Source: Pseudomonadota bacterium
Lineage (GTDB): Bacteria; Myxococcota_A; UBA9160; PR03
Direction of reading: 5' to 3'
Assembly (NCBI GenBank): GCA_003576805.1
Contig: QEVM01000003.1
Coordinates: 1,016 to 65,015, forward strand
DNA length: 64,000 nt
Part shown: positions 51,744 through 64,000 of the stretch, one piece after another
Numbering within the stretch: the stretch's first letter is position 1
Layout of the letters: each line of letters begins with the position of its first letter
The notes under the pieces: generated by a model
Seen by the model: only the letters and a program-made list of their open reading frames with translations
Told to the model about the DNA's origin: nothing
Database searches by the model: none
Position numbers and translations under genes: made by a program

Positions 51744-52169
51744 GTGCGCCGGATCCCCGTCTTCGTCGCCATCCTCGCGCTGCTCGCGGCCGCCGCGCCC
51801 GCCGCCCGCGCCATCTTCTCGTCGCCGATCCACGCGGGCTGCTACATCGCGGCGCCGGGCGACTGCCGGATCCGCGTCGATCCGTTCACCGTGAACGTCG
51901 CGTCGGGCGAGAAGCTGGTGCGCCTCCAGCTCACGGCGGCGCGCGTCGGCGCCGGCTCCAGCGTGGTCTACGACTGGCGCCCCGACGTCTCGAACCCCGT
52001 GCCGTCGGGCGGCGCCAGCACGTACGCGCCGGCGATCCCGAGCCTCGACGTCGCGGCGGCGTGCGGCGAGGCGTACGTGCTCTCGCTCCAGGGCCAGGAC
52101 ACCGGCGACGCGAACCTGCTGAACGCGGGCCAGACCGAAGCGTTCACGTGTCCGAGCGCCGTTCCGTGA
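51744..52169 (+). CDS. Small secreted 4-Cys protein (paralog A, no sorting tag)
   Basis: Signal peptide [23 protein letters not shown]. Aligns along its length with the next gene (CY.A..G.CR...DPF...VYD...NP...Y.P..P...A.C.E.YVL...QD.GDA...T.A..CP). Confidence 0.6.
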
Positions 52170-52650
52170 CGCGCCGCGCGCGCGCGCTCGTGTGGGCGGC
52201 CGCTTGCGCCTCGCTCGCGACGGGCGCCGCGGAGGCGTTCGTCAGCGCGAGCCCGATCGCCGCCGCGTGCTACGCGGCGGAGCGCGGCTGCCGCGTGCAG
52301 CTCGATCCGTTCGCGCTCGAGGTCCCGCTCGGGCGCCGCCTCGCGCACGTCTCGATCGAGCTGGACGGGCAGCCCGTCTACGACTTCTCGACGGACGCGA
52401 GCAACCCGCCCGCCGGCGCCTACGTGCCGACCTTGCCGGCGCGCGGCTTCGCGGCGCGCTGCGAGGAAAGCTACGTGCTGACGGTGCGCGCGCAGGACGA
52501 CGGCGACGCGGTCGCGTCCGTGGCGGCGCAGACCGACGCGATTCCGTGTCCCGTGCGCGTTCCGGAGCCCGAAGCGAGCCTCGCGGCGGGCGCTGCGCTC
52601 GGCGTGCTGCTGGCTCGTCGCCGACGCAGGACTCGGTCTATCCTGCGCGC

Positions 52651-52654
<4 letters not shown>
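52166..52654 (+). CDS. Small secreted 4-Cys protein (paralog B) with PEP-CTERM tag
   Basis: GTG 52166 overlaps the paralog A stop (GTGA). Tail '[24 protein letters not shown]' at 52559-52651. Its stop overlaps the BVMO start (ATGA). Confidence 0.65.
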
Positions 52655-55150: not shown

Positions 55151-56989
55151 ATGCGGAACGCGCGACTGCCCTCCGTTCCTTGCCGGCGCGGCGCGGCGTC
55201 GCTGGCGCTCGTGGTGCTGGCCCTGGCGTTCGCGGCGGCGGCGGACGCGCGCACGCGCACCTTCTGCGGCGTCGTGAAGCGGAGCTGCGGCGGCCATCTC
55301 CAGCCCGTCTGCACGAGCGGCGCGGCGTGCGACGCCGGCCACAGGCAGTACTCCGGCTCGCCCTTCCCGATCACGATCAACTGCCCGTGGCCGATCGCGG
55401 ACGTCCGCGTGACCGCCGGCTGCTACGACGAGCGCCCGGACTGCGGCGACTGCAGCGCGCAGGGCCAGATCCCGTGTCCGGTCGAGGCCGAGCCCTGGTG
55501 CACGGCCGGCTGCGACGCCGGCCTCGAGCCGGATCCGATCGCGGGACTGTGTCAGGAGCCGGGCAGCTTCGAGCTGCCCAAGGCCGGCGCGAACGAGAGC
55601 TGCGCGCCGGGCCTCGTCGCGTGCGACGAGGGCCTCCAGTGCACGCTCGCGCTGCTCTGCTCGCACGAGCCGGCGCGCGAGGGCGAGACCTGCGACGTCG
55701 GCGCGCCGTGCGGCGACGGGCTCTTCTGCGCCGCCGGCGTGCCGCAGGTGTGCAAACGCGAGCGGACGGTCGGCCAGGGCTGCTCGGTGCTGAACCCGTG
55801 CGCCGACGGCCTCTCGTGCGAGGCGTGCTTCACGGAACGGTGTCGGGCGCCGTTCCAGTGCTTCCCGAACGCCAACGGCGGCATCCTCAGCGAGCAGCAG
55901 TGCCGCACGCTCTACAGCCGGGAGCTCTCCGACGCGGCCGCCGACCTCGGGCTCGCGATGACGTACGGAGCGGGCGACGGCGCGGCGCTCGGCGTCGGCG
56001 AGTCGCAGTCGATCGGCGTCGCGTACGGCGCGAACGGCGAGTACGGCTGCTGGACGAACCTGTGCGCGGGCGCCGGCGTCGTCGCGTCGTTGTCGGCTTC
56101 CGTCTCGGTCGGCTTCTACGACGACTACGCGTATCTGGACGGCGACACCTTCGCGGTCGTCGAGGAGGCGGGCGCGGTCGTCAGCTTCGCGACGTCGCAG
56201 GTGTTCCAGCTCGGCGACGACCTGCTCCCGTTCGGACCGGTGATCGGGACCGAGGACGCGCTCTCGATCGGCGTCGGCATCCCGCTCGCGGCGGGCGCGT
56301 ACGTCTGCACCGGCACGCTCGACACGCTCACCGTCGAGCCGGGCGAGAACGATCCGCCGCCCTCGCCGCTGCCCGCGCTCGAGATGATCGTGAACCCGGA
56401 CTTCGACGCGGACCTCGCCGCCTGGCAGTGCAGTGCGGGCGCGCAGTGCGCGTGGGTCGCCGACGCACCGGCGGGCTTCGGCGCGGGCCGCGTGCGCAGT
56501 CCGCTCGCGGGCGCGCAGGCGGGCCGGCTCGCGTCGAGCTGCGTCAGCGTTCAGGAAGGGCTGCCCTATCGCGGCGCCGCCTGGGCGCGCGCGACGGGCG
56601 CGCGCGACGGCGTGCTCGCGCTGCACTGGAGCACGACCGACGCGTGCGGCGACGTGGCCGCGACCGACGTGCTGGGCAGCGCGCCCGCGGACGGAACGTG
56701 GCGGCGCGTGGCGGCCGTGACGACGGCGCCCGCCGGCGCGCGCACCGTGCGGCTCGTCGCCGAGGCGCTGCGCGACGACACCGGCGCGGCGAGCGAGATG
56801 CGCATCGACGCGGCCTACGTGCCCGAGCCGCATGCGGCGCTCGCCGGGCTCGCGGCGCTCGTGTCGCTCGCGTGCGCTGGACGGCGCCGCCGCCCGGCTG
56901 GCATGATGCGCCCCGGTGAAGATGCTGGTCTGCGACGATCACGCGGTGTTCCGCATGGGCCTGCGCGCCGTGCTGCGCGCGATCGATGA
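55151..56989 (+). CDS. Cys-rich secreted protein with PEP-CTERM tag followed by a 31-codon extension
   Basis: 27 Cys in the first ~250 residues, including 3 x 'C-x5-6-C-x-[DE/G]G-L-x-C' units (55601-55843). 'VPEPHAALAGLAALVSLACAGRRRR' at 56819-56893. The frame stays open to 56989, overlapping the next gene. Confidence 0.7.
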   Translation: MRNARLPSVPCRRGAASLALVVLALAFAAAADARTRTFCGVVKRSCGGHLQPVCTSGAACDAGHRQYSGSPFPITINCPWPIADVRVTAGCYDERPDCGDCSAQGQIPCPVEAEPWCTAGCDAGLEPDPIAGLCQEPGSFELPKAGANESCAPGLVACDEGLQCTLALLCSHEPAREGETCDVGAPCGDGLFCAAGVPQVCKRERTVGQGCSVLNPCADGLSCEACFTERCRAPFQCFPNANGGILSEQQCRTLYSRELSDAAADLGLAMTYGAGDGAALGVGESQSIGVAYGANGEYGCWTNLCAGAGVVASLSASVSVGFYDDYAYLDGDTFAVVEEAGAVVSFATSQVFQLGDDLLPFGPVIGTEDALSIGVGIPLAAGAYVCTGTLDTLTVEPGENDPPPSPLPALEMIVNPDFDADLAAWQCSAGAQCAWVADAPAGFGAGRVRSPLAGAQAGRLASSCVSVQEGLPYRGAAWARATGARDGVLALHWSTTDACGDVAATDVLGSAPADGTWRRVAAVTTAPAGARTVRLVAEALRDDTGAASEMRIDAAYVPEPHAALAGLAALVSLACAGRRRRPAGMMRPGEDAGLRRSRGVPHGPARRAARDR

Positions 56990-57560
56990 GGACGCGGAGC
57001 TGCTCGAAGCCGCCGACGGCGGCGAGGCGCTGCGGCTCGCTGCGCAGCATCCCGACCTCGACCTCGTGCTGCTCGACCTCGAGATGCCCGGCGTGGACGG
57101 CCGCACCGGGCTGCGCCGGCTGCGCGCCGCGCACCCGGAGATCCCGGTCGTGATCGTGTCGGCCGCGGCCGACGGCGCGCAGATGCGCGCGTCGCTCGAC
57201 GCGGGCGCGTCCGGGTACGTGCCGAAGGGCATGCCCGCGGCCGAGATGCGCGCGGCGCTCCAGCTCGTGCTCGCCGGCGGCGTCTACGTTCCGCGCGGCG
57301 CGCTCGGCGCGCCGCCCGACGCAGCGAAGAGTCACGAGGCGCGGCGGCGGCGCGTCGCGGGCCTCACGCCGCGCCAGCGCGACGTGCTGCTGCTCGTGGT
57401 GCGCGGCCTCACCAACCGCGAGATCTGCGGCGTGCTCGCGATCGCGGAGGGCACGGTGAAGGCGCACGTCGCGGCGATCCTCGACGCGCTCGGCGCGAGC
57501 AATCGCACGGAGGCCGCGATGCTCGCGCGCGAGCTGGGTCTCGACGACCCGGCCGCGTAG
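56916..57560 (+). CDS. NarL/FixJ-type response regulator (REC + LuxR HTH)
   Basis: 'MLVCDDHAVFR...DLVLLDLEMPGVDG' receiver. 'LTPRQRDVLLLVVRGLTNREICGVLAIAEGTVKAHV' LuxR HTH. Start is GTG 56916 or ATG 56922. Confidence 0.9.
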   Translation: MKMLVCDDHAVFRMGLRAVLRAIDEDAELLEAADGGEALRLAAQHPDLDLVLLDLEMPGVDGRTGLRRLRAAHPEIPVVIVSAAADGAQMRASLDAGASGYVPKGMPAAEMRAALQLVLAGGVYVPRGALGAPPDAAKSHEARRRRVAGLTPRQRDVLLLVVRGLTNREICGVLAIAEGTVKAHVAAILDALGASNRTEAAMLARELGLDDPAA

Positions 57561-57591
57561 CGCAAGCGCGCGGCGGCGGACGGAGCGCCCG

Positions 57592-60435
57592 ATGCGCCGA
57601 CCCTGGGCCGACACGCTGCTGATGGCGCTGCTGCTGCCGCTCTTCGCGGCCTGTCTGGCGCTGCACGTGCGCGAGGCGCGCCGGACCGGACTCGCGCAGC
57701 CGCCCGTGTTCGCGACCGGCCGCGGCGCCGACGCCTACCCCGTCGTCGGCGGCGTGCGGCTCGAACGCGGCGCCGACTGGTCGGGCCTCGTGCTCGGCGA
57801 TCGCCTGATCCGCGTCGGCGACACCGATCTGCGCGGCAAGGGCTACATCGGCTTCGACGCGTACGCGCTGCACGAGGCGGGCACGCGCGGCAGCGCGCCG
57901 CTCGTGATCGAACGCGACGGCGAGCGCCACGCGATGACGCTCGCGATGCAGCGCCAGCAGCTCCCCTGGTATCGCGTGCCGTTCATGCTCTCGTTCGTGC
58001 TGGTCGCGACGCTGGTGCTGCTGCGCTCGCCGGGCTCCGCGACGGCGCGCGTCCTGTTCGCGGGCTTCGTCGCGTTCGCGTGCGTCGAGACGCCCTTCTA
58101 CGGCGGGCCGCCGCTCCAGACGTACGCGTACGGGGCGCTCTTCCACGGCGTCGGTCCGCTGGCGGTCGGGCTGCTGCTCGCGTTCTTCGCGCGGCTGCCC
58201 GCGGAGGTGCCGCGCGAGCGCCGCGCATCGCCGTGGTGGGGGCTCGCCGGCGCACTCTTCGCCGTCGTGCGCATCCCGTACTTCTTCGACTGGCCGGTGC
58301 CGGCGCTCGTCGCGCCGGCGGCCGTGCTGGTCTGCGACGTCGGGTTCCTGGTGCTGGGCGTCGCGCTCGTCGGCTGGAACGTCGCGCACGCAGAGCCGAT
58401 CGGACGGCGCCGCGTGCGCTGGGTGCTGGTCGGCGCGGCGTTCGGCATCGCGCCGATGGCGGTGACGCTCTCGCTGCAGTCGCTGCTCGAGCCCGCGACG
58501 TATCACCGGCTCTTCCAGTACAGCGCGATCGGCGCGGTGTTCCTGCCGCTCGGGCTCGCCGTCTCGATCACGCGCGCGAACCTGCTCGACATCGACCGCC
58601 TGCTGTCGGCGACGACCGCCTATTCGGTGGCGGTCGGCGCCGCGGTCGCGGCGGCGCTCGCGGTCGTGCCGCCGCTCGGGCGCGCCGCCGCCGCGGCGTC
58701 GGGCCTCGATCCGCGCTCGGCGCAGACGCTCGTCGCGCTCGCCGTCGCCGCGGTCGCGGTGCCGATCGGGCGCCGGCTGCGCCCGGTCGTGGAGGGCGTC
58801 TTCTTCCCCGAACGCGCCGTCGTGGAGCGCGGCTTCCGCCAGCTCCTGCGCGATCTCTCGGAGTGCGGCGGCGCGGACGAGCTGCTCGAGCTGGCGCGCG
58901 CGCGCATCGAGTCGCTGCTCGGGCTGCGCTCGTGCGCGGTGTACGAGCCCGACGGCGACGCCTTCGCCGTGCGCGGCCGCCCCGACGCGCCGCGCTTGCG
59001 CCGCGACGGCGCGCTCGTGCGGCTGCTCGAGCGCGACTCGGTGCCCGTGCGCAGCGCGCGCGCCGCGCTCGCGGCCGGCGAGCGCGAGGCGCTCGCCGGC
59101 GCGCCGATCCTGGTGCCGGTGCGCGCCGGCAAGGACCTCGCCGCGCTGCTCGCGCTCGGCGCCAAGCGCTCGGGCGACGTCTTCCCGTCCGCCGAGCTGA
59201 CGCTGCTCGGCGCGCTCGCGGAGAAGGCGTCGGCGGAGCTCGGCCGGCTGCGCGATCGCGCGGCGCTCGCCAGCGAGCGCGAGCGCGCCGCCGCGCTGCA
59301 GCAGCTCACCGACGAGGCGCAGGCCGCCAACCGCGCCAAGTCGCGCTTCCTCGCCGCCGCGAGCCACGACCTGCGCCAGCCGCTGCACGCGCTCGGCCTC
59401 TTCGTCGACCGGCTCTCCGATCACGTCGCCGGCGACGTCGGCCGCGCGCTCGCCGAGCAGGTCCAGGCGACGACGCGCGCGCTGCGCGATCAGCTCGACG
59501 CGCTGCTCGACCTCTCGCGGCTCGACGCGGGCGGCGTCGAGCCCGACGTGCGCGCCTTCGCGATCGGTCCCGAGCTCGCGCGGCTCGCCGCCGAGACGAG
59601 CGCCGCCGCGCGCGAGAAGGGGCTCGGCTTCCGCTTCGAGCCGGCGGACGCCGTCGTCGCGAGCGATCCGATCCTGCTCGCGCGCGTCCTCCAGAACCTG
59701 CTCGCCAACGCCGTCCGCTACACGAACGCGGGCTCGGTCGCGCTGCGCGCGCGGCGCGACGGCGCGCGGCTGTGGATCGAGGTCGCGGACACGGGCCCCG
59801 GCATTCCCGCCGACCGCCAGCGCGAGATCTTCTCCGAGTTCTACCGGCTCGACCCGCGCGCGGGCGACGGCGGCCTCGGCCTCGGCCTCGCGATCGTCGA
59901 CCGCACCGCGCGCCTGCTCGGCCACGCCGTGCAGCTCGACTCCGCGCCCGGCCGCGGCTCGGTGTTCCGCGTCGCGCTCCCGCTCGCGGCGGCCGGGACC
60001 GACACGACGGAGAGTCGCGCGCCCGGCGCCGCGGCCGGCCTCGCGGGCCGCCGCGTGCTCGTGGTCGAGGACGAGCCGGCGGTGCTCGAAGCGATGCGCG
60101 GACTGCTCGAGTCCTGGGGCTGCCGCGTCACGCCCGCGCGCAGCGTCGCCGCCGCCACCGACGCGCTCTCGCCCGGCGCCGCGCCGCCCGACCTCATCAT
60201 CGCCGACTACCGCCTCGGCGACGCCGAGACCGGCATCGACGCGATCGAGCGCATCCGCCGCGCCACCGGCGTCGACGTCCCGGCCGTCCTCGTGAGCGGC
60301 GAGTCCGGCCGCGACTCGCTCGTCGCGATCCGCGCGAGCGGCCTCCGCCACCTCGCCAAGCCCGTCCCGCCCGCCCGGCTGCGCGCGCTCCTCGCCGAGC
60401 TGCTGCGCCGCCCGGGCGCCGGCGCGCCGCACTGA
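57592..60435 (+). CDS. Membrane hybrid sensor histidine kinase/response regulator
   Basis: N-terminal TM, possible PDZ-like segment and a multi-TM block. HisKA 'FLAAASHDLRQPLHAL'. HATPase 'GGLGLGLAIV'. C-terminal REC 'VLVVEDEPAV...DLIIADYRL'. Confidence 0.85.
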   Translation: MRRPWADTLLMALLLPLFAACLALHVREARRTGLAQPPVFATGRGADAYPVVGGVRLERGADWSGLVLGDRLIRVGDTDLRGKGYIGFDAYALHEAGTRGSAPLVIERDGERHAMTLAMQRQQLPWYRVPFMLSFVLVATLVLLRSPGSATARVLFAGFVAFACVETPFYGGPPLQTYAYGALFHGVGPLAVGLLLAFFARLPAEVPRERRASPWWGLAGALFAVVRIPYFFDWPVPALVAPAAVLVCDVGFLVLGVALVGWNVAHAEPIGRRRVRWVLVGAAFGIAPMAVTLSLQSLLEPATYHRLFQYSAIGAVFLPLGLAVSITRANLLDIDRLLSATTAYSVAVGAAVAAALAVVPPLGRAAAAASGLDPRSAQTLVALAVAAVAVPIGRRLRPVVEGVFFPERAVVERGFRQLLRDLSECGGADELLELARARIESLLGLRSCAVYEPDGDAFAVRGRPDAPRLRRDGALVRLLERDSVPVRSARAALAAGEREALAGAPILVPVRAGKDLAALLALGAKRSGDVFPSAELTLLGALAEKASAELGRLRDRAALASERERAAALQQLTDEAQAANRAKSRFLAAASHDLRQPLHALGLFVDRLSDHVAGDVGRALAEQVQATTRALRDQLDALLDLSRLDAGGVEPDVRAFAIGPELARLAAETSAAAREKGLGFRFEPADAVVASDPILLARVLQNLLANAVRYTNAGSVALRARRDGARLWIEVADTGPGIPADRQREIFSEFYRLDPRAGDGGLGLGLAIVDRTARLLGHAVQLDSAPGRGSVFRVALPLAAAGTDTTESRAPGAAAGLAGRRVLVVEDEPAVLEAMRGLLESWGCRVTPARSVAAATDALSPGAAPPDLIIADYRLGDAETGIDAIERIRRATGVDVPAVLVSGESGRDSLVAIRASGLRHLAKPVPPARLRALLAELLRRPGAGAPH

Positions 60436-60495
60436 GCGGGCAAGGAGAGGCGGCGCCACTCGCCGATGTCGACGTCGCGGCCGATCCGGGCTGGC

Positions 60496-62115
60496 TCAGT
60501 GCAGCTCAGCTGACACGCTCGTCACCGTACCCGCGCGACTCAATCGTCCCGCAACGCGCGAGAGGAGTCGCCTTCTGAGCTCCCGATCGGAAGCGAACAA
60601 GCGCAGGTCTTCGAATGCGATCCGTGGATCCGCCTGGTAGGCCGCCATCGCCATGCGCGCACGGCGAACCGCACGGACCCAATCACTGGCCCCCCTGGCG
60701 AGCGACGGATCGAGGCGAATACACGGGACTCCCACGTGCGCCGCCAATCGTGTGGTGACTCGGACGCCAGACTTGCTGCCCACGTCGATCAAGGCATCAC
60801 ACAGCGCGAGAGTATCGACGAGGGCCTGCCGCTCGCCTTCGGCGGAAGCACCCTGATCCGGAGGAACCGAATAGACGGCGCGGCACTCGACCCCTGCTGC
60901 CTCGAGCAGGGCTCGCAGCGGCTCGATCGAGCGCCACCCGGATCGGTCCACGATCGCCACGGACTTTCCGCGAAGCCTGCGCATGCGACGATCGGCGAGA
61001 ACGCTCGTCAACATCGACTTCACATGAATCGCGTCGAGCTCTTCCGTCGAACGGTCGAGCTCCGCCCGCAGCTCGGCAGCAACGGCATTCTTGGTTCGAG
61101 CGGAAGCAGCCAACGACTTCCGATCTCCGATGTTCTCGAGCTCGGTTGACTCATCGTCGTGGTGTAAGACGAGCTTCCACGGGTACTTGACGATCGAAGT
61201 GAGGCGACCCGGTTGGAGGAAGTAGCGATTGTCCGTGCGGAGGTATCGCTGCGAATCCTCGGCGCTCGCGGGTCCGCCCCGCACGAGGTGAGCGATGTTT
61301 CGTCCGCGGCTCTGGCTCGAAAGCTGCGCATCCGGATCGAGGCTCAGCAAGTCGACCAACGACACAGCAAGGTCGATGCTGGACACGGGGCAGTCGATTG
61401 AACGGGGGACGCAACCGGGAGATCGGATCAGCAAGGGGATTCGGATGTTCTCGCTTGACAAAACCAAGTCGTGGCCGTGGTGGTCTAGCTCAGCGCGCCA
61501 TTCGGCGATCGGGCGATCATCGGGGGGCACCGGAAATCCGTGATCCGAGCAGACCACCAGCACGCTGTTCGTAAGCACATTCCTCAGGATCCAGAGCAGC
61601 CGTTGGACCTGCGCCTCGGTTTCCTGCCCCGAGTACATGTTGAGGTGCGCGAACAAGAAGCGCGGCGACCTCGCGTCGTCTGCCAGCGTTCGCTCGATGG
61701 CGTCGATGATCTGATCGTTGCTCCAGTCCTCCCGGTAGCGGGAGCCCGACGACCAGTGTTTGCGAGGGATTGAGGGTAGGACGCTCCGGAGGCGGTCGCG
61801 CGTGTACGGATACCAAGCCGCCTGGTGCACGAGATACCCCCGCTCGGACAGGACCTGGGGCAAAGAGCGGATCTTGTCGGGATCGAAGCTGAAGTCGGCG
61901 AACGTCCGGCCGAGCTGGTAGGCGTGCATGCCGGTCATCATCGCGCTCACGGACATCAGGGTGCTCGGAGCGGACGTGAACGCGTTCGTAAAGCGCACAG
62001 AATCGGGCTCGAGCATTTTCAGGAACGGGAGCGGGTCTCTCGCGGCGTGCCGTCGGCTGGGCCGAGCGCGCATTCCATCCACGAGAATCCAAACCAGGTT
62101 CGGTCGTTCTGCCAC
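60496..62115 (-). CDS. Cytoplasmic alkaline-phosphatase-superfamily (sulfatase-fold) protein with a non-canonical active-site motif and a ~200-aa unknown C-terminal domain
   Basis: 'PNLVWILVDGMRA', 'FTSAPSTLMSVSAMMTG' (S-A-P-S-T instead of C/S-x-P-x-R), 'LVVCSDHGF'. No signal peptide. GTG 62115 lies 7 nt after AGGAGA (GTG 62184 is an alternative). Visibly lower GC. Confidence 0.7.
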   Translation of the reverse strand: MAERPNLVWILVDGMRARPSRRHAARDPLPFLKMLEPDSVRFTNAFTSAPSTLMSVSAMMTGMHAYQLGRTFADFSFDPDKIRSLPQVLSERGYLVHQAAWYPYTRDRLRSVLPSIPRKHWSSGSRYREDWSNDQIIDAIERTLADDARSPRFLFAHLNMYSGQETEAQVQRLLWILRNVLTNSVLVVCSDHGFPVPPDDRPIAEWRAELDHHGHDLVLSSENIRIPLLIRSPGCVPRSIDCPVSSIDLAVSLVDLLSLDPDAQLSSQSRGRNIAHLVRGGPASAEDSQRYLRTDNRYFLQPGRLTSIVKYPWKLVLHHDDESTELENIGDRKSLAASARTKNAVAAELRAELDRSTEELDAIHVKSMLTSVLADRRMRRLRGKSVAIVDRSGWRSIEPLRALLEAAGVECRAVYSVPPDQGASAEGERQALVDTLALCDALIDVGSKSGVRVTTRLAAHVGVPCIRLDPSLARGASDWVRAVRRARMAMAAYQADPRIAFEDLRLFASDRELRRRLLSRVAGRLSRAGTVTSVSAELH

Positions 62116-62152
62116 CGCGGCGTCTCCTGTGACTGGACTGAGCCCATGGGTC

Positions 62153-62914
62153 TCACCAGCGCCAATCGTGACTCCACAGCTCACCGGACATTCGCGACGT
62201 CAGTCGCGCGTACGAAGCGAGGTCGGTCTCCGAGTCGACCTCGCACCACCGACCCTCGATCGGCACGGCGGCGACCTGCTGACCCCGCGAGATCGCGAGT
62301 CGCAGGAGTGAAGTGATGTCGAGTCGGTCGACGTCCGCGGGTGGCAGAGTGGCGAGCGCGAGTCTAAGCGCATTCCAGCCGTTTGGCGTCAGGCGCGTCA
62401 AGCCGATGTACTGCGCCTCGACGTCTGCGTAAGAACGCGGACGAGCGCCGATGTCGGCCACGCGGCCGTTCTCGAGCCGCAACGTCTCGGCGTCGGCGAG
62501 AGGGTTCTCGAATCTTAGTGTCCAAAGCTCTCGCCAGCGCGTATCGACCGCGATCGCGATCTCGTGATCCGAGCCGAGGAGGCGAGTGATGATCTCCGGA
62601 TGGAAGGCGATATCCGAGTAAACCACGATGCACAGGCCGCGCGCCAGCAGGTCACTCGCTTGCTCGAGAGACCGCACCATGTTCGTCGACTCCCACCGCG
62701 AGTTCTCGAGCAGGAGGTGAGGGCCCGTCACGGAATCCGCGCGGTATCCGCGGACGATTGCAATCTGTTCGATGCCTGCTCTTCGCAGAGCCGCGATCTG
62801 CCAATCGAGGAGAGTTCGTCCGGCGATCTCAAGCAGACACTTGGGCGCATTCTCTGTTGCGCGCCCCATCCGGCGTCCTCGACCTGCTGCGAGTATGACG
62901 GCGTGCGGCGTCAA
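62153..62914 (-). CDS. Nucleotidyltransferase (MobA/LicC-like; candidate Cj1416-type CTP:phosphoglutamine cytidylyltransferase)
   Basis: 'AVILAAGRGRRMG....PKCLLEIAGRTLLDWQI' NTP-transferase P-loop-like signature. TTG 62914 overlaps the upstream stop (TTGA). ATG 63013 is an alternative. Confidence 0.7.
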   Translation of the reverse strand: MTPHAVILAAGRGRRMGRATENAPKCLLEIAGRTLLDWQIAALRRAGIEQIAIVRGYRADSVTGPHLLLENSRWESTNMVRSLEQASDLLARGLCIVVYSDIAFHPEIITRLLGSDHEIAIAVDTRWRELWTLRFENPLADAETLRLENGRVADIGARPRSYADVEAQYIGLTRLTPNGWNALRLALATLPPADVDRLDITSLLRLAISRGQQVAAVPIEGRWCEVDSETDLASYARLTSRMSGELWSHDWRW

Positions 62915-63576
62915 GCGTTGACCTGCCGGCGTGCCGTCCGGTCGAAGCCGAGAAAGCGCTCGAAGATTGCGAGGTCCGTGTCCCGCGCCTTCGAATACCG
63001 CTCGGGGTGCCACTGGAGCGCGAGCACACGGGGTTGCGGCGCATAGGCCGCTTCGACGATGCCGTCGTAGGCGACGAGAAGCGGCGTGAGAGGCTGAGCG
63101 ATCTGGGACGCGGCCACGCCGTTTCGGTGGTAGGAGTTCACGTTTTCCATGGCGCGAAGGATGTCGGCGAAGTCGTGGGACGCATTCGTGGGGCCGACCT
63201 CATGCGGCGTCCCGCAGTGACGGTCGGGATCGCATCGTTCGAGGGGTCCCCCGAAAATGGTTTGAATGAGCTGCAGGCCTCGGCAGATGCCTACGATCGG
63301 AACACCGCATGCAACGGCCGAATGAAAAAGCCTCTCCTCTGCCGCGTCCCGATCGGGGTCGGAGCCAAGGTCATCACCTCCCGTCAAGATCAACGCGGTA
63401 ACGGGAACCGTACGCAGGAGGCGCTCCGCCATGCGGGGCTCGTTCGGCGCCCCGAAGCACACGGCGTTGGGCGTGAGCTCCGCGAAGAAACGCCACCAGC
63501 GTCGGTCGACCGAGTCGCGCGTCTCGCCTCGCTGCACGGATCTCCTGGCGGAGACGGCGAAGATCTCAGCCGGCAT
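62911..63576 (-). CDS. Class I glutamine-amidotransferase-like / peptidase C26 hydrolase (candidate Cj1417-type gamma-glutamyl-CDP-amidate hydrolase)
   Basis: Nucleophile elbow 'VPIVGICRGLQLI' and 'LALQWHPE' His/Glu region, typical of gamma-glutamyl hydrolase (PuuD/C26) proteins. Start overlaps the upstream gene by 11 nt. Confidence 0.8.
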   Translation of the reverse strand: MPAEIFAVSARRSVQRGETRDSVDRRWWRFFAELTPNAVCFGAPNEPRMAERLLRTVPVTALILTGGDDLGSDPDRDAAEERLFHSAVACGVPIVGICRGLQLIQTIFGGPLERCDPDRHCGTPHEVGPTNASHDFADILRAMENVNSYHRNGVAASQIAQPLTPLLVAYDGIVEAAYAPQPRVLALQWHPERYSKARDTDLAIFERFLGFDRTARRQVNA

Positions 63577-64000
63577 CGAGGGGCATCAACGACTGAGTCG
63601 CGGGGGAGATCACGGCTCGGTGCGATCTCGCAATGCGCGTGAACGCGCGCTCGCCGCAGCCGATCGCAGCCGCCAGACCGTGCTCGACGCAGCGGATCGC
63701 CATGTGCGAGTTCGCGCCGCCGAACCGCGTCACCAAGCCGATCGGACCGTGGGGGAAGATCCAGTCGTAGCCAGGGTCCGCTTGTTCGATCGCCACGATC
63801 TTCCCGCAGATGTTCCCGGGGCTGTGCAGCGGCGACAACACGGCCACCTCCCCACTCACCGTCTGCGATCCGACGAAGGTCGGGGTGGCGAGATCCTCGA
63901 GGACGACATCTACGTCCGTTGCCGCGAAAATCGCGGAGGGGAGCGGTGTCGCACGCGCGACCTCGTGGAGGCGGCGGCCGGCTTGGACCAAGTCAGCCAG
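63566..64000 (-). CDS. C-terminal part of a PEP-utilising-enzyme (phosphohistidine swivel domain) protein; candidate Cj1418-type L-glutamine kinase (5' part outside window)
   Basis: 'GKIVAIEQADPGYDWIF..GPIGLVTRFGGANSHMAIRCVEHGLAAAIGCG' is the PEP-utilisers mobile-domain signature with its catalytic His. The frame is open to the window edge. Confidence 0.75.
   Translation of the reverse strand: MADLVQAGRRLHEVARATPLPSAIFAATDVDVVLEDLATPTFVGSQTVSGEVAVLSPLHSPGNICGKIVAIEQADPGYDWIFPHGPIGLVTRFGGANSHMAIRCVEHGLAAAIGCGERAFTRIARSHRAVISPATQSLMPLDAG

Follow-up and report, generated by a model that had tools for sequence, protein, structure and literature searches.

What does a sulfatase-fold protein do as the last gene of a cassette that otherwise resembles the phosphoramidate-activation genes of Campylobacter jejuni? 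The question is raised by a 64,000-nucleotide (nt) stretch of contig QEVM01000003.1 (positions 1,016 to 65,015; Pseudomonadota bacterium, GenBank assembly GCA_003576805.1; hereafter the window), in which homologues of Cj1418, Cj1417, and Cj1416 are followed, as a preliminary description had it, by a minus-strand gene at 60496-62115 that closes the cassette. In the work of Raushel on C. jejuni, the Cj1418 kinase reportedly phosphorylates L-glutamine at its amide nitrogen, Cj1416 is said to add cytidine monophosphate (CMP) to give CDP-L-glutamine (CDP, cytidine diphosphate), and the amidotransferase Cj1417 reportedly frees glutamate and leaves CDP-amidate (CMP-O-PO2-NH2). Cj1415-1418 together produce CDP-phosphoramidate 3'-phosphate, and the step that transfers the phosphoramidate is known genetically only, via Cj1421/1422 (PMC11800397); Campylobacter species that carry cj1416-1418 but not cj1421/22 may use other transferases (PMC3907429). 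From genomic context and chemistry we propose, with an even chance of being right, that the sulfatase-fold protein would be a CDP-amidate-dependent phosphoramidate transferase that works through a threonine intermediate. More tentatively, its whole family may consist of soluble, cytoplasmic, sulfatase-derived enzymes that install phosphonates or phosphoramidate on glycans, from CMP/CDP donors and through a Thr-phospho intermediate; the phosphonates meant, with the same reserve, are methyl-, hydroxyethyl-, and aminoethyl-phosphonate.

Fold and predicted active site

Residues are numbered on the longest open reading frame (ORF; 562 aa, from GTG 62184 to a stop ending at 60496); in the 539-aa protein each number is lower by 23. 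The motifs of the alkaline phosphatase (AP) superfamily that had been read from the sequence, LVDGMRA and CSDHGF, are present (Table 1), and the protein matches the Pfam Sulfatase family (PF00884) with an E-value of 1.8e-19 and 70.6 bits where 25 are required, well outside what chance would give. We judged the placement of the active site from alignments and from the secondary structure of an AlphaFold2 model built on a 63-sequence alignment (pLDDT, the predicted local distance difference test, 88.3; pTM, the predicted template modelling score, 0.88). HMMER alignments to solved sulfatases, made with the single sequence and with the 63-member profile, set Thr75 on the formylglycine Cys/Ser. In the model Asp36 closes strand 29-35, Thr75 forms the N-terminus of helix 75-84, and Asp214-His215 come after strand 207-212; as modelled, these residues fit the canonical metal-ligand and nucleophile positions of the AP superfamily. 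The paired N-terminal Asp-Asp of sulfatases is not found: Asp36 stands alone, followed by Gly here and by Ser, Gly, or Ala in the family.

The preliminary description had put SAPST at the formylglycine site, doubted on that ground that the protein is a true sulfatase, and called the active site degenerate. The absence of a formylglycine motif stands and the register does not, for the reading was four residues off: the counterpart of the sulfatase C-x-P-S-R is T-L-M-S-V (family pattern T/S-x-M-S-x), without the Pro or the Arg. Since both of these residues are required, no formylglycine can form; as far as sequence can tell, the identity of a formylglycine sulfatase is excluded, and true sulfatase was rejected as a candidate. 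Degeneracy is contradicted by the conservation of the catalytic residues, which are essentially invariant in 93 family sequences (Thr or Ser at position 75 in 92/92, Asp36 in 90/91, Arg39 in 91/91, Asp214-His215-Gly216 in 93/93, and His238 and Asp239 each in 92/92). This invariance argues for catalysis and gives no indication of a non-functional pocket; a pseudoenzyme was rejected as well, and the site is, by these residues, apparently re-tooled rather than degenerate.

No signal peptide or transmembrane segment was found in the protein, in agreement with the first reading (the best 19-residue Kyte-Doolittle window reaches 1.36), and it is predicted to be soluble, like the family at large, and cytoplasmic. 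Foldseek returned S1 sulfatases, the YejM periplasmic domain, choline sulfatase, and phosphonate monoester hydrolase (PMH), at 14-19% identity and TM-scores of 0.4-0.5. The protein looks like a member of the sulfatase lineage whose nucleophile has presumably been swapped for one of the phosphoryl-transfer type.

The roughly 200 extra C-terminal residues that had been noticed (aa 362-562) are part of the family profile, which covers this extension in most of the 150 listed representatives. In the AlphaFold2 model they form a long helix (362-397), a four-stranded alpha/beta domain (~405-490), and a helical bundle (500-550); modelled alone, the C-terminal domain has a pLDDT of 84. The extension has no Pfam match, and a Foldseek search of the PDB with the C-terminal domain gave nothing at E<1e-3 (best E 3e-3, generic Rossmann-like half-domains only). 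No match to the P-loop APS_kinase domain was found in the sulfatase-fold protein with Pfam or NCBIfam.

The family, its loci, and the proposed reaction

An exhaustive profile search of 1.84 billion proteins (E<=1e-30, representatives clustered at 50% identity) gave a rare family of 186 representatives, mostly of 500-600 aa and matched end to end; a word-index search found five relatives only, and the same kind of search with the 63-sequence alignment found no further members. Clustering with characterised sulfatases or phosphonate monoesterases was not seen, since with the family profile true members reach 180 bits or more and the best non-members no more than 74, and the family appears by these scores to be distinct from ordinary sulfatases. 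Its members go under the source names "hypothetical", "arylsulfatase A-like", and "YejM"; neither Pfam nor NCBIfam has a family-specific model, and literature searches found no functional study of the family. Four representatives and several loci show C-terminal fusions to a family 1 glycosyltransferase (GT1), about 950 aa long in all. The closest relative (P0002, 59% identity) lies within a matching four-gene cassette (L001).

We compared 92 family loci, of which eighty came from metagenomes (mostly marine), ten from GTDB genomes, and two from the L001 and L002 contigs, by clustering the neighbour genes and annotating the cluster representatives; the 36 loci with at least eight neighbours are called well resolved. 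The host genomes include Planctomycetes, Gemmatimonadota, a Pelagibacteraceae single-amplified genome, Desulfosudis, Cytophagia, and Poseidonibacter. Nearly all of the well-resolved loci carry glycan-synthesis genes (35/36), 25/36 carry a nucleotidyltransferase, and 23/36 a recognisable head-group pathway. For example, in 16 loci the family member adjoins a fusion of a cytidylyltransferase to phosphoenolpyruvate (PEP) mutase (PepM) together with phosphonopyruvate decarboxylase (Ppd), with or without an iron-type alcohol dehydrogenase (Fe-ADH); the P0005 contig shows the PepM-fusion and Ppd context too. Four loci have a class-V aminotransferase and a nucleotidyltransferase just upstream of the family member, and a further context class joins a CmcI-type methyltransferase to a fusion of family member and GT1, with an ABC transporter and PepM/Ppd nearby. 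The constant siting in biosynthetic glycan clusters and the GT1 fusions argue for a biosynthetic step. The steps that follow nucleotidylation of phosphonates have been described as enigmatic, and LicD-like enzymes have been proposed as transferases for CMP-aminoethylphosphonate (CMP-AEP; PMC6697681).

The same loci bear on whether the protein handles head groups at all. It seems improbable that its role is unrelated to them, whether as a sugar sulfatase or phosphatase or as a YejM/PbgA-like non-catalytic scaffold that travels with polysaccharide clusters. Such a role would suit the 13 of 36 well-resolved loci in which no head-group genes were recognised, and the YejM periplasmic domain among the Foldseek matches; moreover, sugar nucleotidyltransferases are common in glycan clusters, so their proximity alone is weak evidence. 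However, the lack of a C/S-x-P/A-x-R motif, hence of formylglycine, speaks against a sulfatase, the invariant Asp, Thr/Ser, Asp-His, His, and Arg residues favour catalysis, and the direct adjacency or overlap with PepM/Ppd, with cytidylyltransferases, and with the Cj1416 homologue is specific and turns up repeatedly, in clades independent of one another.

Homologues of Cj1418 and Cj1417 stand beside a family member in four known loci: two of the 92 surveyed (L001 and L012), the window, and the P0003 contig. L001 has the four genes in the order of the window. On the P0003 contig the order is family member, adenosine 5'-phosphosulfate (APS) kinase, Cj1418-like, and Cj1417-like gene, with a sulfotransferase-fold gene nearby. 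The Poseidonibacter locus (L012) begins with the family member, an APS kinase (4.6e-31), two uncharacterised genes, and a methyltransferase, and goes on with Cj1418, Cj1417, Cj1416, a methyltransferase, and GT1; in this complete Cj1415-1418-like cluster the family member sits beside the kinase, and no other obvious transferase was found. Because a Cj1415-type kinase adjoins the family member in two of the four loci, the family member adds to the pathway and is not a substitute for the kinase; replacement of the kinase, for which the protein also lacks the fold, was rejected. The idea that the protein fills the Cj1415 slot is thus right as to position and wrong as to function, and the expected linkage to Cj1416-1418 genes holds for the nearest homologues and is a minority context in the family at large. 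Three outcomes had been named as counting against the preliminary description (clustering with sulfatases or phosphonate monoesterases, absence of that linkage, and a non-functional pocket), and none was found in full.

A reverse survey found Cj1418 homologues on 14 plasmids of cultured bacteria, and the 1418-1417-1416 order is kept in six plasmid loci whose annotated regions were inspected; a tblastn search of the plasmid collection with the sulfatase-fold protein gave no match to the family. On the plasmid of strain Smac51 the partners are an APS kinase, a methyltransferase, and uncharacterised 413-aa proteins, and on two Azospirillum plasmids, one with a different gene arrangement, an APS kinase and a methyltransferase. 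On a Vibrio alfacsensis plasmid a gene of the TagF-like CDP-glycerol glycerophosphotransferase family directly follows the Cj1416 homologue, in Pseudohalocynthiibacter a weaker TagF-like gene, just under the Pfam cutoff, directly precedes the Cj1418 homologue, and in Agrobacterium vitis a CDP-alcohol phosphotransferase lies one gene past the triad. The TagF-like and CDP-alcohol phosphotransferase families use CDP-X donors and release CMP. Since kinase-free plasmid triads have CDP-X phosphotransferases nearby, the window protein can be argued to be a transferase for CDP-amidate; this comparison of neighbours is, by analogy, the strongest comparative argument for a transferase role.

In a neighbour-joining tree, calculated without support values, the context classes follow the clades of the family, and the members linked to phosphoramidate genes branch off at three separate places, in two cases among relatives linked to phosphonate genes. 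The family has apparently recruited the phosphoramidate cassette more than once. On chemical grounds CDP-amidate would be isosteric with CMP-methylphosphonate (P-NH2 in place of P-CH3 or P-CH2R), and the tree has the pattern expected if the enzyme recognises CMP-O-P(O2)-X, where X is CH3, CH2R, or NH2.

The reaction that we propose would run as follows. The Cj1418-, Cj1416-, and Cj1417-like enzymes of the window would carry out the C. jejuni-type steps to CDP-amidate. A metal bound by Asp36, Asp214, and His215 would activate Thr75, which would attack CDP-amidate, or in loci with a kinase its 3'-phosphate, at the terminal phosphorus; CMP would depart, leaving a covalent Thr-O-phosphoramidate intermediate, from which a sugar or growing glycan would receive the phosphoramidate on a hydroxyl. 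Binding of the phosphoryl and nucleotide moieties may fall to His238, Arg39, and further invariant Arg residues. Elsewhere in the family, this chemistry could serve phosphonates from CMP-phosphonates, and possibly other CDP-activated head groups.

Several points weigh against this proposal. To our knowledge, the characterised PF00884-type transferases are all membrane-anchored and extracytoplasmic and all use lipid donors, namely phospholipids. The nearest solved relatives are all hydrolases, and the family profile matches hydrolytic sulfatases (1.5e-30) better than it does LtaS-type transferases (~1e-11). No head-group pathway is recognisable in 13 of the 36 well-resolved loci (e.g., those with acetamidino-sugar genes), and 11 loci have CDP-alcohol phosphotransferases that could be the actual transferases in those loci. 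In the 64-kb window we found no glycan genes, no methyltransferase, and no Cj1415-type kinase homologue (the last with four different queries). Moreover, the product of the cassette is itself one that we infer, since the Cj1417-like protein scores under the NCBIfam equivalog cutoff.

Some of these points would suit a hydrolase, which could be a phosphodiesterase or pyrophosphatase that splits CDP-amidate or CMP-phosphonates and sets phosphoramidate or phosphonate free, or a monoesterase or phosphoramidase by which the glycan head group is removed or edited, much as sulfatases and PMH treat their esters; we consider this unlikely, though it deserves to be taken seriously. Not only are S1 sulfatases, choline sulfatase, and PMH the nearest solved relatives, but water could resolve a covalent Thr intermediate as readily as a sugar, the protein has a weak match to Pfam Phosphodiest, acceptor-encoding genes were not found within the window, and the sulfotransferase-fold gene of the P0003 contig could be the true transferase for a donor resembling 3'-phosphoadenosine 5'-phosphosulfate (PAPS). 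Yet the destruction in the cytoplasm of a costly three-enzyme product, inside one translationally linked operon, is implausible; the GT1 fusions and the placement in biosynthetic glycan clusters also speak against it, and it is CDP-X phosphotransferase families, not hydrolases, that neighbour the kinase-free triads.

A third possibility concerns the donor. A CDP-alcohol phosphotransferase might load a lipid, from which the sulfatase-fold protein would move the group to the glycan in the manner of EptA, LtaS, or BcsG; we think this improbable, as we do its corollary that the transfer would take place at the inner membrane face. Phospholipid donors serve all characterised PF00884 transferases (BcsG preprint, 10.64898/2026.09.23.753746), and 11 loci have a CDP-OH_P_transf gene within a few genes of the family member, the one in L002 lying directly upstream. 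But the protein has no membrane anchor, and these partners occur in only 11/92 loci and in none of the window, L001, and L012.

Further arrangements were observed around family members and triads. A conserved marine cassette is present in 27/92 loci (L017-L021, L052, L061-L064, L090 4634-11506, and others), in the order nucleotidyltransferase, 125-aa SerK-like protein, second nucleotidyltransferase-like protein, DUF711 (UPF0210), S-adenosylmethionine (SAM) methyltransferase, family member, SAM methyltransferase, and often a CDP-alcohol phosphotransferase; these genes may encode a pathway, as yet undescribed, to a nucleotide-activated head group. L016 (9977-15751), like L024 and L029, has two paralogous family members with a GT1 gene between them, followed by a 495-aa type-I phosphodiesterase/nucleotide pyrophosphatase (NPP; PF01663), the third AP-superfamily gene in the cluster. 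Upstream of the Pirellulaceae member in L003 (511-4089) are two fusions, a 659-aa nucleotidyltransferase with a cofactor-independent phosphoglycerate-mutase-like part and a 482-aa Asp/Glu racemase with a SAM methyltransferase. B12-binding radical SAM enzymes, a class that includes the P- and C-methylases of phosphonate pathways, adjoin the family member in Desulfosudis (L010 11917-13203) and occur in the phosphoramidate cluster of the Smac51 plasmid (L095 16927-18780). A 423-aa neighbour in phosphonate loci (c28) has no Pfam, NCBIfam, or PDB match. The methylphosphonate cluster of N. maritimus reportedly includes "sulfatase" and nucleotidyltransferase homologues as well.

Among the plasmid triads, that of Vibrio alfacsensis is also near an amidotransferase of the XrtA/PEP-CTERM system, and that of Agrobacterium vitis pRvVAT039a (L100, 351947-360278) is accompanied by an amino acid-tRNA-ligase-related gene, a TauD-family dioxygenase, an asparaginase, and LysE exporters besides the CDP-alcohol phosphotransferase; the latter locus looks more like one for a small-molecule phosphoramidate natural product than for glycan decoration. 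The Cj1418 homologues of Pseudohalocynthiibacter (1032 aa, L097 8263-9000) and Vibrio alfacsensis (966 aa, L098 8443-9000) have N-terminal extensions of ~190-250 aa that match nothing in Pfam. An 838-aa protein of Azospirillum ramasamyi ends in the APS-kinase domain, and its first 650 aa have no assignment.

The gene, the cassette, and their surroundings

The start of the gene had been set at GTG 62115, and this is borne out as the likely true start. We favour it over the longer form because it has an AGGAG box with an 8-nt spacer and gives an N-terminal length that fits the family: it lies four residues ahead of the conserved Asn of the first strand, equal to the family median (members begin 1-28 residues ahead of strand beta1). 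The public annotation, P0001 ("Proteobacteria bacterium DCC71_00945", 525 aa), starts at Met38 ("MRARPS"), which removes strand beta1 and the metal-binding Asp36 (62074-62184, minus strand).

Table 1. Positions in the window of the sulfatase-fold gene, its predicted functional residues, and the other cassette genes.
Feature	Position	Strand	Basis
Sulfatase-fold protein gene, 539 aa	60496-62115	-	ORF list; Pfam Sulfatase; ribosome-binding site; family N-termini; AlphaFold2 model
Shine-Dalgarno AGGAG, 8-nt spacer to GTG 62115	62124-62128	-	Sequence reading
LVDGMRA, end of strand beta1; Asp36 (62077-62079), predicted metal ligand; Arg39 (62068-62070)	62065-62085	-	Family conservation, model
SAPST; Thr75 (61960-61962), predicted nucleophile	61960-61974	-	Conservation, sulfatase alignments, model
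CSDHGF; Asp214-His215, predicted metal ligands	61534-61551	-	Conservation; aligned to sulfatase D-N/H-G
His238-Asp239 pair, near the approximate place of the sulfatase active-site Lys	61468-61473	-	Conservation, alignment
C-terminal extension, aa 362-562	60499-61101	-	Family profile, AlphaFold2 models
Cj1416-like nucleotidyltransferase (probable TTG start 62914; ORF up to 63013)	62153-62914	-	Pfam NTP_transf_3 1.5e-17
Cj1417-like class-I glutamine amidotransferase / Peptidase_C26	62911-63576	-	Pfam 6.8e-20
Cj1418-like PEP-utilising gene (glutamine kinase type), 3' end; rest cut off by the window edge	63566-64000	-	PEP-utilizers domain; PRK05849

The three upstream cassette genes overlap one another, and a gap of 37 nt separates the Cj1416-like gene from the sulfatase-fold gene, which has its own ribosome-binding site. 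The families and order of the upstream genes (1418-1417-1416) match those of C. jejuni. The Cj1418-like fragment, the last 141 aa only, scores 134 bits (E 4e-39) against PRK05849, which we take to be the model containing Cj1418; its full-length homologue in L001, 66% identical over the shared part, reaches 725.8 against a cutoff of 501. The best NCBIfam match of the Cj1417-like proteins is gamma-glutamyl-CDP-amidate hydrolase (NF045546), in all cases below the cutoff of 250 (52.6 bits in the window, 70.1 in L001, and 165.2 in L012). The Cj1416-like protein of the window, a MobA-like nucleotidyltransferase, is 59% identical to the product of the gene in the matching position of L001.

The cassette (60436-64000) has 64-68% GC and a GC content at third codon positions (GC3) of 0.77, and the adjoining convergent hybrid histidine kinase and LuxR-type regulator (56916-60435) have 76-77% and 0.97. 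Because of this sharp difference, the composition points to a horizontally acquired island. Its left border is a 60-nt convergent spacer, in which no terminator-like hairpin was found. A signalling link to the adjacent histidine kinase and response regulator was rejected, since these genes are convergent and compositionally native and nothing ties them to the cassette. Farther away, the ORFs at 52061-52654 (+) and 55151-56989 (+), the second of them Cys-rich, have no Pfam match, and their tails resemble PEP-CTERM sorting signals ("VPEP", a hydrophobic stretch, and an Arg run).

Significance and comparison with known systems

If the proposal is right, the protein would be the first AP-superfamily transferase with a nucleotide donor and its family would explain the assembly of marine phosphonoglycans; phosphoramidate-decorated glycans would exist well beyond Campylobacter, and phosphonate and phosphoramidate pathways would have been swapped several times. 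A confirmed transferase would also be a clear case of a sulfatase hydrolase scaffold re-tooled by a swap of its nucleophile. Marine phosphonates make up a large reservoir of dissolved organic phosphorus and give rise to methane, and in Campylobacter O-methyl phosphoramidate (MeOPN) bears on resistance to serum and on recognition by phages; with one conserved, soluble, and readily expressed candidate adjoining both the phosphonate and the phosphoramidate pathways, both transfer steps become testable on substrates that enzymes can already supply.

When tested by the defining features of the characterised families, the protein appears to fall outside every one of them. With EptA/MCR-1, LtaS, OpgB, and BcsG it shares the AP-superfamily core and, as predicted, an unmodified Thr/Ser nucleophile at a helix N-terminus with Asp/Glu and Asp-His ligands, and the mechanism proposed here resembles the ping-pong reaction in which enzymes of the EptA/LtaS type pass a phospho-head group on to a glycan or lipid. 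Those enzymes, however, are anchored by several membrane passes, work outside the cytoplasm, and use phospholipid donors, whereas this protein has no transmembrane segment, is closer to sulfatases, carries the family-specific 200-aa C-terminal extension, and would use a CMP/CDP-activated donor; the genomic context favours nucleotide donors over a phospholipid donor. Among S1 sulfatases its best matches are 6hr5 (1.5e-30, profile) and 9fo1 and 7stt (~1e-19, Foldseek), and the match spans the C-terminal beta-sheet subdomain (SGSH_C in relatives); PMH structures match at 6.5e-16 (4upk) to 1e-13, chiefly from the DHG region onwards through the C-terminal part of the sulfatase domain. It differs from both groups in that T/S-x-M-S-x stands where they have the formylglycine nucleophile motif, and in its predicted cytoplasmic location, low identity, and place in biosynthetic rather than degradative clusters.

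The likeness to the O-methyl phosphoramidate pathway of C. jejuni lies in the Cj1418/1417/1416-type genes and, in related loci, in a Cj1415-type kinase and SAM methyltransferases, and the role proposed here equals that of Cj1421/1422, the transfer of phosphoramidate to a sugar (PMC11800397, PMC3907429). Unlike C. jejuni, the window yielded neither a Cj1415 homologue nor a methyltransferase, the host is an uncultured high-GC proteobacterial metagenome-assembled genome, and the candidate transferase differs in fold class from the Cj1415 kinase (APS-kinase fold). The TagB/TagF enzymes (Glyphos_transf), the CDP-alcohol phosphotransferases, and LicD would be its functional analogues, since they take a phospho-head group from a CDP donor, hand it to a glycan or an alcohol, and set CMP free; their folds are unrelated, and they act by direct displacement, without the covalent enzyme intermediate that we propose for the sulfatase-fold protein.

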